A DNA stretch of 24,377 nt, taken from IMG/VR virus record IMGVR_UViG_3300025313_000008, positions 1 through 24,377 of that record. One strand, 5' to 3'. The position numbers and the translations under genes are program-made. This stretch comes from a virus. Below, piece by piece: positions 4,142-17,465 of this stretch. The notes beneath the pieces are model-generated. The model saw only the letters and a list, made by a program, of their open reading frames with translations. It ran no database searches and was not told the origin of the DNA. Position 1 is the stretch's first letter; every line of letters begins with the position of its first letter.

Positions 4142-4350
4142 GATTTAAACCTCACATGATCTCCAGCGAAAAAACAAAGTATTGTTGCTAATATTCCAAA
4201 TACACTAATACAAGCACCTATAGCAAAAATAAAAGCATGAACTATACTAGCGGTTATACTATTGGTAGATACTATTGATACCCACATCAATGTTCCTATT
4301 ATTGTAATTATCCCCGTAAATTGATAATCCTTAATTGGTACTTCTATCAT
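4138..4350 (-). CDS. small 2-TM membrane protein
   Basis: Two hydrophobic helices; ATGA overlaps. Confidence 0.65.
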   Translation of the reverse strand: MIEVPIKDYQFTGIITIIGTLMWVSIVSTNSITASIVHAFIFAIGACISVFGILATILCFFAGDHVRFKS

Positions 4351-4670
4351 TTTTCATTATCGCCCAAATATTCTTTAAGTATTTCAAACAATTTTAATGC
4401 TTCTTCTATCTCATAAAGAGATAATCGATATAAATCCTGATGTACATATCTTTTTGCTCTCTTTAAACGTTTTTGCATATCACCTATTGGATCTTTAAAT
4501 TCATCCAACCATAATTGAGTTAATGATTTTCCTTGTACATTATGATATTCTGCGTGATCTGTTGCAACATATATTATTGAACCTTTTTTTAACTTAATTT
4601 TTCCTATTTTGGGAATAGACAACAATGAATTTCTTGATATTCTTGAATGTGATATTTTCTTCTTTACCAT
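4347..4670 (-). CDS. mini-protein containing a paralogous copy of the terminase ATPase Walker-B segment
   Basis: GKIKLKKGSIIYVATDHAEYHNVQGKSLTQLWLDE aligns ungapped with TerL GEISLKNGSVMYMVTDHNQYGHVEGKSLDHVMLDE (19/35 identical); own TATA (TATATATT, 4701-4694). Confidence 0.8.
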   Translation of the reverse strand: MVKKKISHSRISRNSLLSIPKIGKIKLKKGSIIYVATDHAEYHNVQGKSLTQLWLDEFKDPIGDMQKRLKRAKRYVHQDLYRLSLYEIEEALKLFEILKEYLGDNEK

Positions 4671-4708
4671 TTCATTTATTGAGTTGGATAGATAATATAT
4701 ACTAATGC

Positions 4709-4850
4709 TTTAGTATCATAAGACCACCGATCTTTATATACTATTGTGGTAATTTGATACTAAAATGTTAATGGGGTATTTGTATTATGGCACCCCTACC
4801 ACAACGAGAATTCCGAAACAGCGTTTCTATTCTGCTATTTCTTCACCCAA
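4709..4850 (-). ncRNA. candidate pseudoknotted small RNA
   Basis: Stems GAAATAGC/GCTGTTTC, GGGGTG/TACCCC, GTTGTGGTA/TACCACAAT crossing TTTAGTATCA/TGATACTAAA; G-U wobbles only on the minus strand; TATA at 4878-4871; no ORF. Confidence 0.6.
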
Positions 4851-4878
4851 GGTTCTTTAGTAACATACGTAATATAAA

Positions 4879-5058
4879 CTATACTTCTATGTAATCTGCT
4901 ATTTTGTTTTGTGACATTCCACACTTTACGCATCTCTTATCAATGAAATAATGTGTTTTACTTCCATGTTTTCTCTTTTCACACGGCGCTAGTTCACCAC
5001 AATATTTACATGTAATACTTGGCGGATTATCTGAACAGAATAAATGTGTGTGATCCAA
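4879..5058 (-). CDS. 59-aa zinc-finger micro-protein (TTG start)
   Basis: H..C..CKYCG..C...H...H...CVKCG; TTAATAT box ~24 nt upstream. Confidence 0.6.
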   Translation of the reverse strand: MDHTHLFCSDNPPSITCKYCGELAPCEKRKHGSKTHYFIDKRCVKCGMSQNKIADYIEV

Positions 5059-5085: not shown

Positions 5086-6924
5086 TTAACCATTGTTCCC
5101 CACAGATACCCACGAATACGATTGGTGAATATCTAAACATTTTTTCGCCAAAATACAACTCACTAAACTGTCGGGAGGATGTGAAAATTTTTTCGACTTT
5201 TTTTGAGTGGCGTCTGCACTTACATCTTCGTCTGGCTTTTCAGGTAAATCAACTCTGACTAACTTAGTCCAGTCATTTAGAATAAAGTCTAATTTATCTC
5301 TACTATCCGGATGATTTGGTATCATAAATCTAGGTCTTGTATAGTCTTCTACAAGCGGATTATCTGGATGTGGCACATATTCTCCTAAAAAGTCTACAAA
5401 CTCCTGTATCATTGTGCTTTTATCTAGTGTTACTTTTGGTACTTCATCACCATGTTCGTCTATCTTTCTTGTGAACTCTAATAGTGGTTTTGTTTCATCG
5501 CCTATTGTTCTTGAACCATAGAATTTATTTTCTCCTACACCCGCATATAATTTACCAGTTAATCTATTGGCACTACCGCTTTGTATTGCCTTTATTTGGT
5601 TTGCTCCGTATCCAAGGTCTCCCATACCTATATCACATTTTGCTACTTTAAACATCCAATTAATATATTCGGCTTGATCCATTTGATTTTCTCCGGGTCT
5701 GGGCTCAAGGAGTGCTAATTGCACTCTATTGTAGTTTGTTTGTACTTTATCACCTTCTTTTATTCTCCATACTATAAAGATAGCGATAACAGTTTGTGAT
5801 GGGCTTCCAGAACCAAAATCAACTCCCATACAAATAGCTACTTGTTTTCCATATGTATCCTTGATATCTCCTATTTGCTCCGGCGTTAATAACTGCAGAT
5901 AAGGATATGGGTTCATACAAATTTCTATCATTTCTCGTGTAATTGGTCTTCTTTCTGCTTTGTAAAAACCACCCATTACATGTGATGTATAAAGTGAACG
6001 ACTCATGTGTTTTCTACGCCATTCTATCGAATATTGTGGATCTACATCATAGTCATTAATTGCTGATTCTATTGTAAGTGGAATAGTTGGAAATATTGTT
6101 TGTGGTAAATAATAGCCATGCCAGTGTACTGCCCTTGGGTTTGTTACTTCCCAATGTCCGCGCAATACTTCTTTCAAGTATTCGCCTATAATGAGTCCAT
6201 GCTTTTCTCTCTTTAGGTGGTCTTTGACTAATCCAAATTGTAGTTTTTCTCTCCAATTAAGGTCATCATATATCCACTTTCGTTGATCTGTTCTACGCCA
6301 TAATTCCTCATATGGTGATCCACTTTCTCCACCAATTCCTAATACAGTTACCTTACCCATTGTTTGTGACATTGTTAATGTTACCCTATCAAAGTTTTGT
6401 ATATCTTGGTATTGGGCTTCATCTAACATTACATGATCCAATGATTTACCTTCTACATGTCCATATTGGTTGTGGTCTGTTACCATATACATTACTGATC
6501 CGTTCTTTAGTGATATTTCCCCGACGTTACCAAGCTTATGTCTTGGAAATAGCTTTAAAATTGGATTTGGTTCAAACGTACCATATTGTAATTTCTGCCT
6601 TGAATAACCCGATCTAGATACATCGTCATATGTTACATAACATGATTGAAATCCTGCAAATGCAGTCGTTTCAAATGCTAGAATATCAGTAGTGTAAGTA
6701 GATTTGAATATCTGTCTTCCTCCAATAATCATCTTATTTGGGTTATTATCCCTATAAATGTCCTCCCAGAAAGGAGCAACTAAAAATGACCGAGGTCTGC
6801 CTTCTACAAGTGGTCTTGCTTCTTCTATCCACCTTAGCGGTTCTGTAGGTAAAACGGGTAAATCACTTATTTGTTTGATCTTTTCCGCTAGGATCTTCTC
6901 TATATCATCCATATCATAAGGCAT
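5086..6924 (-). CDS. terL: terminase large subunit
   Basis: 612 aa; Walker A-like GGRQIFKST, Walker B VMLDEAQ, RNase H-fold nuclease MGVDFGSG...GDLGYG...HPPD. Confidence 0.9.
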   Translation of the reverse strand: MPYDMDDIEKILAEKIKQISDLPVLPTEPLRWIEEARPLVEGRPRSFLVAPFWEDIYRDNNPNKMIIGGRQIFKSTYTTDILAFETTAFAGFQSCYVTYDDVSRSGYSRQKLQYGTFEPNPILKLFPRHKLGNVGEISLKNGSVMYMVTDHNQYGHVEGKSLDHVMLDEAQYQDIQNFDRVTLTMSQTMGKVTVLGIGGESGSPYEELWRRTDQRKWIYDDLNWREKLQFGLVKDHLKREKHGLIIGEYLKEVLRGHWEVTNPRAVHWHGYYLPQTIFPTIPLTIESAINDYDVDPQYSIEWRRKHMSRSLYTSHVMGGFYKAERRPITREMIEICMNPYPYLQLLTPEQIGDIKDTYGKQVAICMGVDFGSGSPSQTVIAIFIVWRIKEGDKVQTNYNRVQLALLEPRPGENQMDQAEYINWMFKVAKCDIGMGDLGYGANQIKAIQSGSANRLTGKLYAGVGENKFYGSRTIGDETKPLLEFTRKIDEHGDEVPKVTLDKSTMIQEFVDFLGEYVPHPDNPLVEDYTRPRFMIPNHPDSRDKLDFILNDWTKLVRVDLPEKPDEDVSADATQKKSKKFSHPPDSLVSCILAKKCLDIHQSYSWVSVGNNG

Positions 6925-7562
6925 TATTCTTCACCTTTTTCCTCTTCTTCTTTTTCTTGTAGTTTGTTGATAATGTTCTGCAGTTCGGGTTTATCATAGG
7001 TTTTAGTAGTGTTTTCTTTAATAAATTGTTTTAGTGACCATACCGTTTCTGTCTTATTGGCTAATTGTGTGTATTCCTTGGTTGCTTGCATTAAAATTCG
7101 TTCATTATTCTGTTTAACTGAATGATAAATTGATTCATTTTGTAGCCTTAATCTCATTACATCGGCTTCGGTTGGATCATTTTCTCCTTCTGTTGATATT
7201 GCATTAATTTCTACATTTCTAGCATTATAATTAGATTCGGCTATTGCAATCTCTTCACTACATCTTGTTCCAATTTTTTTAAATTCTTGTAATGCTTCAT
7301 GATGATCTACTATAAATTCGCCTGTTAATACCCTATTTTCAATGAAATCTCTACCCTCTTCGCGTATTCGCTGTATATCCCTTCCTATTGTTGCTTCAGA
7401 TATATTTAGATATTCATAGTTGTTATCCTTTAACCACTTTGATATAGATACCGCTTTCTTATATCCAGCATCTTGTAATTGCTTTACTAATGAAATACGC
7501 CTATTGATTTTTTCTTCATCTGTGAGGTTATTTCCATCATTGCCCGTGCCTGTTTCCATCAT
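6924..7562 (-). CDS. putative terminase small subunit (N-terminal HTH + coiled coil)
   Basis: HTH-like 'ISEATIGRDIQRIR'; TAATG-coupled directly upstream of terL. Confidence 0.65.
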   Translation of the reverse strand: MMETGTGNDGNNLTDEEKINRRISLVKQLQDAGYKKAVSISKWLKDNNYEYLNISEATIGRDIQRIREEGRDFIENRVLTGEFIVDHHEALQEFKKIGTRCSEEIAIAESNYNARNVEINAISTEGENDPTEADVMRLRLQNESIYHSVKQNNERILMQATKEYTQLANKTETVWSLKQFIKENTTKTYDKPELQNIINKLQEKEEEEKGEE

Positions 7563-10254: not shown

Positions 10255-10851
10255 TCACCATATTTCTCTTAATGTATATAAATAAATATATTTTCCTTTA
10301 GTAGTTTCATATTTGGCTTCTCCATTTTTTAATGCTTTTTTTAATCTAATGGCATATGGCTTTAGTTTTCCATTGTAATATGATCTTATAGCTTTGTCAT
10401 GATATCTTCTTCCATTCCACATTATAACTCGGCTTTTTGCAGTTGTTCCTAAATTCTTAAAATGTGTTGCTTTGTAGATAGTGCCTTGATGATTAAATTC
10501 TGGATCTGCATATGATACAACTTTCTTTATGCCTGTATTATTCTTGAGCCATCTTAAACATTTGCCTATGAAGAATGATTCTGTGTTTTTAGGCGTATCA
10601 TCTATACAACAAAGTCTCCGTAGCTCAATAAGGTCTTCTTTCTTATTCACATACTTTTTCCAAGTATTAGCCATAGCTAACCAACCAAATACCATAGCTC
10701 CTATTAAATTACCATTACATTCTAACTTGAAACAATAAGTTGAAATTACACCGTTTATGTTTTTTGAATAATGCCATTTTTCTACAAAGTCCCGTATTTC
10801 ATTACGTTCACAAGGCGACACTACCATATTGCTAATACTTATTTTACTCAT
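10255..10851 (-). CDS. Mom-family (GNAT-fold) DNA adenine modification protein
   Basis: WHYS, ELRRL, PKNTESFFIG, VSYAD...HQGTIYKATHF motifs typical of Mu Mom-like proteins. Confidence 0.8.
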   Translation of the reverse strand: MSKISISNMVVSPCERNEIRDFVEKWHYSKNINGVISTYCFKLECNGNLIGAMVFGWLAMANTWKKYVNKKEDLIELRRLCCIDDTPKNTESFFIGKCLRWLKNNTGIKKVVSYADPEFNHQGTIYKATHFKNLGTTAKSRVIMWNGRRYHDKAIRSYYNGKLKPYAIRLKKALKNGEAKYETTKGKYIYLYTLREIW

Positions 10852-11067: not shown

Positions 11068-11313
11068 TTAAACTCCAATTATATATCCACCTTTCTTTAA
11101 TGTAATGTTTAAACCCAATGCTACTTTTTCTGATGCTATCAATTCATTGCCATTCTTATGAGCCCATCTTACTATCCATTCTTCTGAATTGAGATCATCT
11201 GTTAATATCAATATTTCGTCATTATTTTCCATTTTACGCATTTCTATTTCTATTTTAAATAAGTTCTCCGGCACAAAAAGTCCACGCAGATCTAGTTTTG
11301 TTTGTTCACTCAT
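11068..11313 (-). CDS. TusA/SirA-fold protein lacking the persulfide Cys
   Basis: LDLRGLFVPEN vs consensus LDxRGLxCPxP; ILTDD...I.RW...G.EL pattern; probable start at ATG 11313 (ATGA overlap). Confidence 0.75.
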   Translation of the reverse strand: MSEQTKLDLRGLFVPENLFKIEIEMRKMENNDEILILTDDLNSEEWIVRWAHKNGNELIASEKVALGLNITLKKGGYIIGV

Positions 11314-11954
11314 GCTACTTTCCACTCTTTTTTCTTTGATATTTGTTGACAATGGGGGCATATTAACTTTGTTTCATTTTTAATGTAGCTTTTACGGAGT
11401 ATTCTTGAATAACTAAGGTTTTTCAAATCTGTATAGGCTTTCTCTATACTTAGTTTTCCATTTCTTACTTTGCCTTGTATTTCATTATTAGCATGTTCCA
11501 TTATGTATACCGACTTTGATACTGTTAAACCATTTACTCCTATTGTTTTTCCTATTATATCACCTACATTTCCTCTTTTTATACCGTCGTAATCTTCACC
11601 GCCATAATGTCTTTTTCGTGCAAGTTCTTTTTCTATAACATACATTTGATACATTAACTCTACGCGTTGAAATGCATTTAAATGTCTTCTTCTTACATTG
11701 CAATTTATTACATATCTTTTTTCTTCTTCTTTTGTTGCAAATTCTTGTATTCTATATTTTACTTCTATTCCCAATTCTTGACAAATTTCATATCTTGTAT
11801 ATCCATCTAGTATGAATCCATCTCTATTGATTACAATCGGATCATGTTGTCCATGTAGCATTATATCTTCTTTTAATGCCATACGTTCTTCTTTTGTAGG
11901 TCTTGGAACCAAGACTAAATATTCTTCTTTTACTTTAATTATTATTTTTACCAT
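11310..11954 (-). CDS. ParB/Srx N-terminal domain protein with HTH and C-terminal CPHC
   Basis: LKEDI..HGQHDPIVI....ILDGYTRY; NVRRRHL. Confidence 0.85.
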   Translation of the reverse strand: MVKIIIKVKEEYLVLVPRPTKEERMALKEDIMLHGQHDPIVINRDGFILDGYTRYEICQELGIEVKYRIQEFATKEEEKRYVINCNVRRRHLNAFQRVELMYQMYVIEKELARKRHYGGEDYDGIKRGNVGDIIGKTIGVNGLTVSKSVYIMEHANNEIQGKVRNGKLSIEKAYTDLKNLSYSRILRKSYIKNETKLICPHCQQISKKKEWKVA

Positions 11955-17263: not shown

Positions 17264-17271
17264 TTTATGCT

Positions 17272-17342
17272 ATCGGTTTAGTTCAACGGTAGAACATTGG
17301 GCTCATACCCCAAGAACCATGGTTCGACTCCATGTTCCGGTA
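17272..17342 (+). tRNA. tRNA-Met(CAT), initiator-type, with two U-U mismatches in the acceptor stem
   Basis: Cloverleaf: GTTC/GAAC, TTGGG-CTCATAC-CCCAA, CATGG-TTCGACT-CCATG; A1:U72 and three G-C anticodon-stem pairs; no encoded CCA. Confidence 0.88.
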
Positions 17343-17465
17343 TTACTTTATAAAACCATATCTCTTTAAACAATCCACACAAATTACCCCAAGAGCCGAT
17401 GCCTTTTCTTTTCTACATAGTCTACATGGTAAATCATAATCTGTTCTTTTGCCACTATCTTCCAA
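17343..17465 (-). CDS. 40-aa CxxC..CxxC micro-protein (TTG start)
   Basis: PCRLCRK...ICVDCLKR; TTAATAT box upstream; stop abuts the tRNA 3' end. Confidence 0.55.
   Translation of the reverse strand: MEDSGKRTDYDLPCRLCRKEKASALGVICVDCLKRYGFIK

Follow-up and report, generated by a model that had tools for sequence, protein, structure and literature searches.

Two modules of separate history in an ORF-less viral gap: a predicted H-type pseudoknot and a promoter palindrome

Next to the large-terminase (TerL) gene in a 98.4-kb IMG/VR virus record lies a gap of 208 nt (4671–4878), flanked by a 59-aa zinc-ribbon ORF and a 107-aa terminase-fragment gene, and the question it raises is whether it encodes a structured RNA and, if so, of what size and kind. 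The first-pass annotation proposed a single RNA of ~140 nt whose fold depends on a long-range pseudoknot between two stems (a and c), with a possible role as a packaging RNA (pRNA), a ribozyme or a nuclease-resistant RNA. The question reaches beyond this one virus, which appears to infect a member of the Nitrososphaerota. These archaea are globally abundant ammonia oxidisers, and we know of no structured non-coding RNA for their viruses; a literature search likewise found no paper on structured non-coding RNAs, or pseudoknot RNA, in archaeal viruses.

Setting of the gap and its relatives

The window, by which we mean the whole stretch of 24,377 nt that was analysed, is the first 24.4 kb of the record. 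Its G+C content is 32%, and the minus strand carries nearly all of its genes. In a PHROG comparison, the 612-aa TerL protein (5086–6924) matches the large-terminase families phrog_675 and phrog_2. A profile of TerL relatives run against genome collections found 20 loci, every one of them in Nitrosopumilaceae or other Nitrososphaerota, and we therefore take the host to be an ammonia-oxidising archaeon. No DNA similar to the window was found among GenBank phages, and the gap sequence has no second copy anywhere in the 98-kb genome. ARAGORN and Rfam together identified one RNA gene in the window, a tRNA-Met (17271–17343), and neither a tmRNA nor any other family. The tRNA lies on the plus strand, opposite to essentially all of the window's protein genes.

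Genes that lead operons in the window are preceded by a TTTATATA-like box ~26–33 nt 5′ of the ATG, usually with no Shine-Dalgarno sequence. By motif and spacing, these are predicted to be archaeal BRE/TATA promoters that produce leaderless or near-leaderless mRNAs. The archaeal TATA box is located ~23 bp upstream of the transcription start, and a 5′ UTR of 8 nt or less defines a leaderless mRNA (PMC4247193).

Directly upstream of TerL, and overlapping its start, is the gene for a 212-aa protein (6924–7562) with a weak HTH_11 match, a candidate for the small terminase or for a partner that binds DNA. A Mom-like DNA-modification protein (phrog_1384, E 5e-60) is encoded near a ParB-like nuclease/partition protein (10255–10851 and 11310–11954), and the two may belong to a DNA-modification module.

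The comparisons below use three lineages, A, B and C, whose TerL proteins are 75–87% identical. More than 20 metagenome contigs encode the identical 107-aa protein, and their gaps fall into two haplotypes, A and B, which occur in JGI samples that include 3300025319, 3300025001 and 3300025167. Type B is that of the window and includes the zinc-ribbon ORF, while in type A (e.g., L002) the promoter that we call P1 directly follows the TerL stop codon. In lineage C (L046, L060 and L061), whose TerL is 75% identical to that of the window and 87% to that of A, P1 also directly follows TerL and is succeeded by a homologous ORF-less stretch of ~85 nt; the downstream gene is a different one, and there is no big hairpin. 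In most of the other relatives, recovered by exact-protein look-up, TerL is immediately followed by a gene, and the RNA is absent. Two features at the upstream edge of the gap are needed from here on.

4879–5058, minus strand: 59-aa zinc-ribbon ORF, between TerL and P1, in B-type records only
4868–4880, minus strand: promoter P1 (BRE/TATA type, TATA box 4878–4871), conserved in lineages A, B and C

The zinc-ribbon ORF has two CxxC pairs, a TTG start and a TATA-like box of its own, and it is not called by metagenome gene callers.

From a long-range model to a local pseudoknot

The stems on which the ~140-nt model was built do exist in the sequence: stems a and c, and the hairpins GGGGTG/TACCCC, AGATC/GGTCT and GAAATAGC/GCTGTTTC. 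Stem a consists of 8 perfectly complementary nucleotides (4744–4751 with 4797–4804) plus one G-U pair, and stem c of 10 (4709–4718 with 4755–4764), extendable to 19-nt arms at 84%. Read from the sequence, the two stems cross in the way that was described, and the four G-U pairs attributed to the minus strand are also found. These crossing arms, and a position near TerL, are what speak for the model. The difficulty is with stem a: when the 208-nt gap is shuffled by dinucleotides, a perfect 8-mer inverted repeat of this sort arises in 42% of cases, which puts it at chance level, while a perfect 10-mer like stem c arises in 4%. In the minimum-free-energy fold, the 5′ arm of stem a has a local partner and not 4751–4743, and stem a competes with a stem that is conserved (S1, below). 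In addition, lineage A, the only sister lineage with the same 3′ half, has no 5′ partner for stem a at all, so that the expected conservation of this stem in related viruses fails.

The a/c pseudoknot is not conserved, and it bridges two modules of different history. Upstream of 4773, types A and B have strongly diverged, whereas the segment 4773–4347 is 96–99.7% identical between them. The proposed single unit thus falls into two halves that join at about 4773.

The functional roles suggested for the ~140-nt RNA fared no better. At gathering score, Rfam has no match to the gap in the window or in 11 related loci. Even at E ≤ 10, there is no match in lineages A, B and C to a phi29-like pRNA (RF00044), none to the self-cleaving ribozymes (hammerhead, twister, HDV-like, pistol, hatchet and hairpin) and none to an xrRNA; the fold that is conserved is a simple H-type one with no three-way junction. 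The likeness to phi29 pRNA is that a virus-encoded structured RNA would lie near packaging genes. It differs in that we identified neither a three-way junction nor interlocking loops, and in that TerL fits classical large-terminase PHROG families and not the phi29 gp16-type ATPase, which is nuclease-less and works on terminal-protein-primed DNA; the PHROG match of TerL extends to residue 478, which would imply a nuclease half. Taken together, we give the one-RNA, long-range model almost no credence, and it illustrates how a pseudoknot that looks plausible in one sequence can dissolve on comparison with a sister lineage.

The minus strand of the gap nevertheless folds better than its shuffles (z = −2.8), and the plus strand does not (z = −1.4). 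We enumerated pseudoknots in the three lineages and found the same small one independently in each.

4773–4803, minus strand: H-type pseudoknot, 31 nt (enumeration in three lineages and covariation)
4803–4799 with 4790–4786, minus strand: stem S1, 5 bp across lineages
4798–4797, minus strand: loop L1, 2 nt across lineages
4796–4791 with 4778–4773, minus strand: stem S2, 4–6 bp across lineages
L2, minus strand: absent in the window, 0–1 nt across lineages
4785–4779, minus strand: loop L3, A-rich, 7–9 nt across lineages

The order of the strands (5′S1-5′S2-3′S1-3′S2), a 2-nt L1 over an S2 of 4–6 bp and an L3 of 7–9 nt over a 5-bp S1 are those of an H-type pseudoknot. S1 is built from the 5′ arm of the former stem a, and S2 is the hairpin listed earlier as GGGGTG/TACCCC. 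The earlier claim of a structured minus-strand RNA containing a pseudoknot therefore stands, but the pseudoknot that is conserved is a local one (4803–4773) and not the long-range a/c version.

Comparison of the lineages shows that this structure is maintained. In a four-row alignment (A6), 97.6% of the cells pair, and in 4 of the 11 pairs (two per stem) both partners change; the homologue covariation sought by the first-pass annotation is thus found in both stems of the local pseudoknot and not in stem a, which is not conserved. In type A, one position at the junction end of S2 fails to pair, the only one to do so. When the partners were slid by 1–3 columns, 31–47% of the cells paired with 0–1 double changes, a control that favours the structure, since the structure was derived from the same sequences, and that covers only three independent lineages. 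G-U pairs in lineages B and C assign the pseudoknot to the minus strand. The P1 RNA is 57–65% identical among lineages, compared with 76–81% for TerL DNA, and yet the pseudoknot is kept.

We next consider how easily such a structure arises by chance. Loosely defined, pseudoknot-compatible sites occur at ~3 per kb. With a stricter definition, requiring at least 5 G-C pairs and an L3 of at least 60% A, this is the sole site on either strand of the 98-kb genome, and the related loci, 780 kb in all, contain roughly 15 distinct, unrelated sites, of which many are within genes. One could accordingly suppose that there is no functional RNA here, that the region is a decaying spacer or the remnant of a former small gene between promoters, and that the pseudoknot is a coincidence of choosing stems after the fact. 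Such a reading would account for the region evolving faster than the flanking genes, for P1 driving small protein genes at this place in relatives, for a 5′ hairpin (below) that is not conserved and for the frequency of loose sites. It does not sit well with the rarity of the strict site, with its recurrence at the homologous place in A, B and C, where the stem sequences differ, or with four double-sided changes and no broken core pair, and we judge it improbable. We conclude from the comparison that a conserved RNA structure very probably does exist in the gap, and that it is not the one first proposed but a smaller one.

The structure has a narrow distribution. An nhmmer profile of the region from P1 to the pseudoknot, run against all of the fetched loci, recovered lineages A, B and C only. 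When IMG/VR and GTDB genomes were scanned with the core of the A/C-type pseudoknot, only the sister contig and three chance bacterial matches came up. A candidate pseudoknot in L028 and L040 was dismissed, as it falls inside a small zinc-finger ORF. S1 and S2 are each stable as a lone hairpin in every lineage, and the data could equally fit a pseudoknot or a switch between two alternating hairpins; the loop lengths fit classical pseudoknot geometry.

Several known RNAs have a similar architecture. In luteovirus-type −1 frameshift pseudoknots (e.g., BWYV P1-P2), S1 is 5 bp, L1 is 2 nt, S2 is short, L2 is 0–1 nt and an A-rich L3 of ~7 nt can form minor-groove triples with S1. This is nearly the same architecture as in the window; unlike those signals, the window pseudoknot would lie in a non-coding, promoter-proximal transcript of an archaeal DNA virus, with no slippery heptamer and no overlapping frames. 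A −1 programmed frameshift signal was rejected, given that no ORF crosses the pseudoknot in any lineage. The T4 gene 32 mRNA leader pseudoknot is a protein-binding translational operator that is recognised by its shape, and it resembles the present one in that it is compact, of the H-type and located near the start of a phage transcript (5′ end), with A/U-rich sequence after it. The difference is that no cognate single-strand-binding protein gene is adjacent here, and the downstream genes vary and have their own promoters.

Riboswitches of the preQ1-I and SAM-II structural class are the remaining comparison. The pseudoknot shares with preQ1-I (RF00522) an H-type form of ~30 nt with a 5-bp P1, a 2-nt L1, a 4-bp P2 and an A-rich 3′ loop; lineage C further shares with the SAM-II and SAM-II long-loop consensus (RF00521, RF01726), also H-type, the P1 sequence, an A-run and a tail motif. 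Over the pseudoknot of lineage C, Rfam gives sub-threshold scores of 18.7 bits for SAM-II long loop, 14.6 for SAM_alpha and 13.0 for PreQ1, far under the respective gathering scores of 44, 36 and 39 bits, and the preQ1 and SAM-II models have no match in lineages A or B. A small ligand-sensing aptamer would be suggested by the topology, the size and these weak matches. However, L1 is three different dinucleotides across the lineages, and L2 is absent or a single purine, without the ligand-pairing cytosine of preQ1-I (for which the 13-bit match is confined to lineage C). The hairpin loop is 5–7 nt compared with ~18–21 nt in SAM-II, so that the L1 strand of the SAM-binding triplex is missing. With L1 and L2 too short and too variable, there are no preQ1 or SAM-II ligand pockets; no conserved pocket of another kind is visible, and no linked metabolic gene was seen. 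We therefore consider an aptamer of this class very unlikely.

What the comparisons leave is, in all likelihood, an RNA motif that is new but structurally of a familiar type, narrowly distributed in an unexplored group of viruses. The candidate is small and sharply defined (31 nt, two stems and an A-rich loop, with comparative support and clear coordinates), and it is directly testable.

A predicted transcription unit from P1

The TATA box that had been ascribed to the RNA is present at 4878–4871, as part of P1. P1 begins at the stop codon of the zinc-ribbon ORF in the window (lineage B), and it fits the TATA motif located ~30 nt 5′ of most operon-leading ATGs in the window. Comparison shows that it is homologous to a promoter of relatives: in L159, L160, L067 and L166, a P1-type promoter stands right after the TerL stop, with a leaderless or short-leader gene 27–33 nt downstream. 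From this homology, the transcription start in the window is predicted near G4848, and a Y-T-R-G motif aligns at the predicted start in A, B and C. Both P1 and P3, the promoter of the terminase-fragment gene described below, have the motif and spacing of archaeal BRE/TATA promoters as seen at other genes of the genome, and their starts are predictions.

4846–4848, minus strand: predicted transcription start (G after T4849), placed 23 bp downstream of the TATA box
4815–4841, minus strand: 5′ hairpin H1 (4841–4834 with 4822–4815, 8 bp, 11-nt loop), from folding, z about −2
4762–4765, minus strand: U4 tract, candidate 3′ end of the P1 RNA, from sequence, 8 nt after the pseudoknot

What P1 would transcribe appears to be non-coding. 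The description of the region as ORF-less holds across the lineages, in that no ORF is conserved in any frame among A, B and C. In the window, all sense frames of the RNA region are interrupted by stops, and antisense ORFs of 31 and 35 aa exist; in lineages A and C there are stops in all six frames, so that neither a small ORF nor an antisense ORF is conserved. In each of the three lineages, a separate TATA box precedes the next gene at leaderless spacing (P3 in the window, P2′ in L046), and no Shine-Dalgarno sequence was found before the ATG at 4670. From these facts, transcripts from P1 would not be needed as mRNA, and those that read through would be ill-suited to translate the next gene.

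Our preferred reading is that the gap consists of two modules, of which the first (4880–4762) is a small non-coding transcription unit that yields a discrete RNA of ~85 nt, and we put its probability at roughly 55%. In this scheme, the archaeal promoter P1 would start an ORF-less RNA near 4848, the pseudoknot (4803–4773) would form its conserved core and transcription would probably end at the U4 tract 8 nt farther on. Archaeal transcription terminates at U-tracts. The U4 tract of the window is a weak terminator signal; in lineage C, a U-rich tract occurs 5 nt past the pseudoknot, and the same tract is the next TATA box. Both ends of the transcript are inferred. The 2-nt L1 would cross S2, and the A-rich L3 could line the minor groove of S1, and the pseudoknot may be a rigid element at the 3′ side, which would stabilise the RNA or present a shape, rather than a sequence, to a protein. 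Against this reading, there is neither a conserved single-stranded seed nor a known partner, and the pairing of the 5′ hairpin is not conserved. H1 is stable in lineage B; lineages A and C also have 5′ hairpins, stable in A and no better than shuffles in C, whose pairings are not alignable with H1. The variant L050 has a one-base indel within the H1 loop. Support for H1 is weak.

The P1 transcript could instead serve the downstream operon in cis, as its long and structured 5′ leader, with the pseudoknot (plus the big hairpin in A and B) affecting read-through, stability or translation, or occluding P2 and P3. No strong terminator separates the pseudoknot from the next gene, two paired-position substitutions in the hairpin keep pairing only as minus-strand RNA, and 5′ UTRs of 50–300 nt occur in ~20% of the mRNAs of another archaeon (PMC4247193). 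A leader of this kind would not be expected to keep its pseudoknot while the downstream gene differs between lineage C and A/B, and a 175-nt leader with no Shine-Dalgarno sequence, in front of genes that have leaderless-spaced promoters of their own, is poorly placed for translation. We regard the long leader as unlikely, although less so than the absence of any functional RNA, and favour the discrete ~85-nt RNA because of the downstream promoters, the lack of a conserved frame and the U-tract after the pseudoknot.

A more specific proposal is that viruses of ammonia-oxidising archaea encode small RNAs of a new class whose recognition module is this pseudoknot, serving as a minimal, riboswitch-like aptamer or as a shape-specific decoy or partner. 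The target may be a host or viral protein, such as a packaging, RNA-decay or defence factor, and the promoter located where the terminase operon ends may drive the RNA. This we advance as speculation with rather long odds against it, about on a par with those for the decaying spacer.

Two minor observations were made at these promoters. A 16-nt motif beginning GGTGAAAAAC is conserved at predicted P1-type starts (L159 3058–3075, L160, L067, L078 and L158), whether or not the following frame codes, and the predicted 5′ end of the window's RNA is similar. In lineage C, a tiny Lys/Glu-rich ORF of 24 codons (L046 4988–5062, also in L060 and L061) follows promoter P2′ at leaderless spacing; L060 and L061 differ in it by two synonymous changes and one non-synonymous change, and it may be a real micro-gene missed by callers.

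The palindrome and the terminase-fragment cassette

The second module (4771–4694) begins next to the pseudoknot and contains the former stem c.

4700–4771, minus strand: 72-nt imperfect palindrome/hairpin, from folding and inverted repeats, conserved in A and B
4740–4733, minus strand: TATA-like box P2, in the apical loop of the palindrome, from sequence
4694–4705, minus strand: promoter P3 (TATA box 4701–4694) of the leaderless terminase-fragment gene, from spacing
4347–4670, minus strand: 107-aa terminase-fragment gene, similar to TerL, part of the cassette

The palindrome pairs through an outer 5 bp, stem c (4764–4755 with 4718–4709) and an inner helix (4750–4746 with 4727–4723), and it is missing from lineage C. 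It abuts P3, whose TATA box has its first T 31 nt from the ATG at 4670, the same spacing as at other promoters of the window and at P1 of L166. P2 and P3 each represent one copy of a 25-nt direct repeat (D3). The module would thus be a cassette promoter region, with two tandem TATA boxes in the palindrome, that drives the leaderless terminase-fragment gene.

Residues 3–57 of the terminase fragment align with TerL residues 109–169 at 38% identity (E 2e-11), as expected of a diverged copy. A group I intron or a split terminase was rejected, since TerL is itself of full length, with the fragment gene as a distinct and diverged copy. In the fragment gene, one synonymous difference in 324 nt separates A from B, and the adjoining 103 nt differ at only 4 positions. 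The near-identity of 4773–4347 in spite of TerL DNA that is only 78% identical means that this segment is a recently exchanged cassette, with its boundary at the junction described above. The pattern indicates that the palindrome and the terminase-fragment gene form a laterally exchanged, strongly conserved, moron-like unit, and the analysis thereby exposes a promoter palindrome and its gene moving together between viruses.

The four A/B substitutions in the palindrome bear on whether it works as RNA or as DNA. Two are in internal loops, and two are at paired positions, both of them exchanges between G-C and G-U on the minus strand. Such pairing-keeping changes are suggestive but weak as a sign of an RNA hairpin, as two transitions would keep the sense-strand pairing by chance roughly one time in four. 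For this 3′ module only, the palindrome may act on DNA, as the site of a dimeric regulator that brackets P2 and abuts P3. TATA boxes occupy its apical loop and its 3′ flank, it would be upstream of the start and untranscribed with P3 as the promoter, and it travels with the gene that it precedes. Set against these points are the two substitutions just described, a centre-to-centre spacing of 46 bp, which is unusual for one dimer, and a half-site that occurs nowhere else in the 98-kb genome apart from one near copy (4856–4865). As the half-site is not reused in the genome, it is no regulon-wide operator. A scan of IMG/VR for the stem-c arms found the sister contig as the only related sequence, the 11 other matches being chance palindromes. 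On balance, a DNA site is a tentative possibility, well short of an even chance.

More distant, marine relatives, with TerL ~62% identical (L072 2727–3050, and the post-TerL regions of L066 and L070), also have long gaps at this place. These are ORF-poor, higher in G+C and without an Rfam match, and by eye they contain several mutually crossing complementary stretches.
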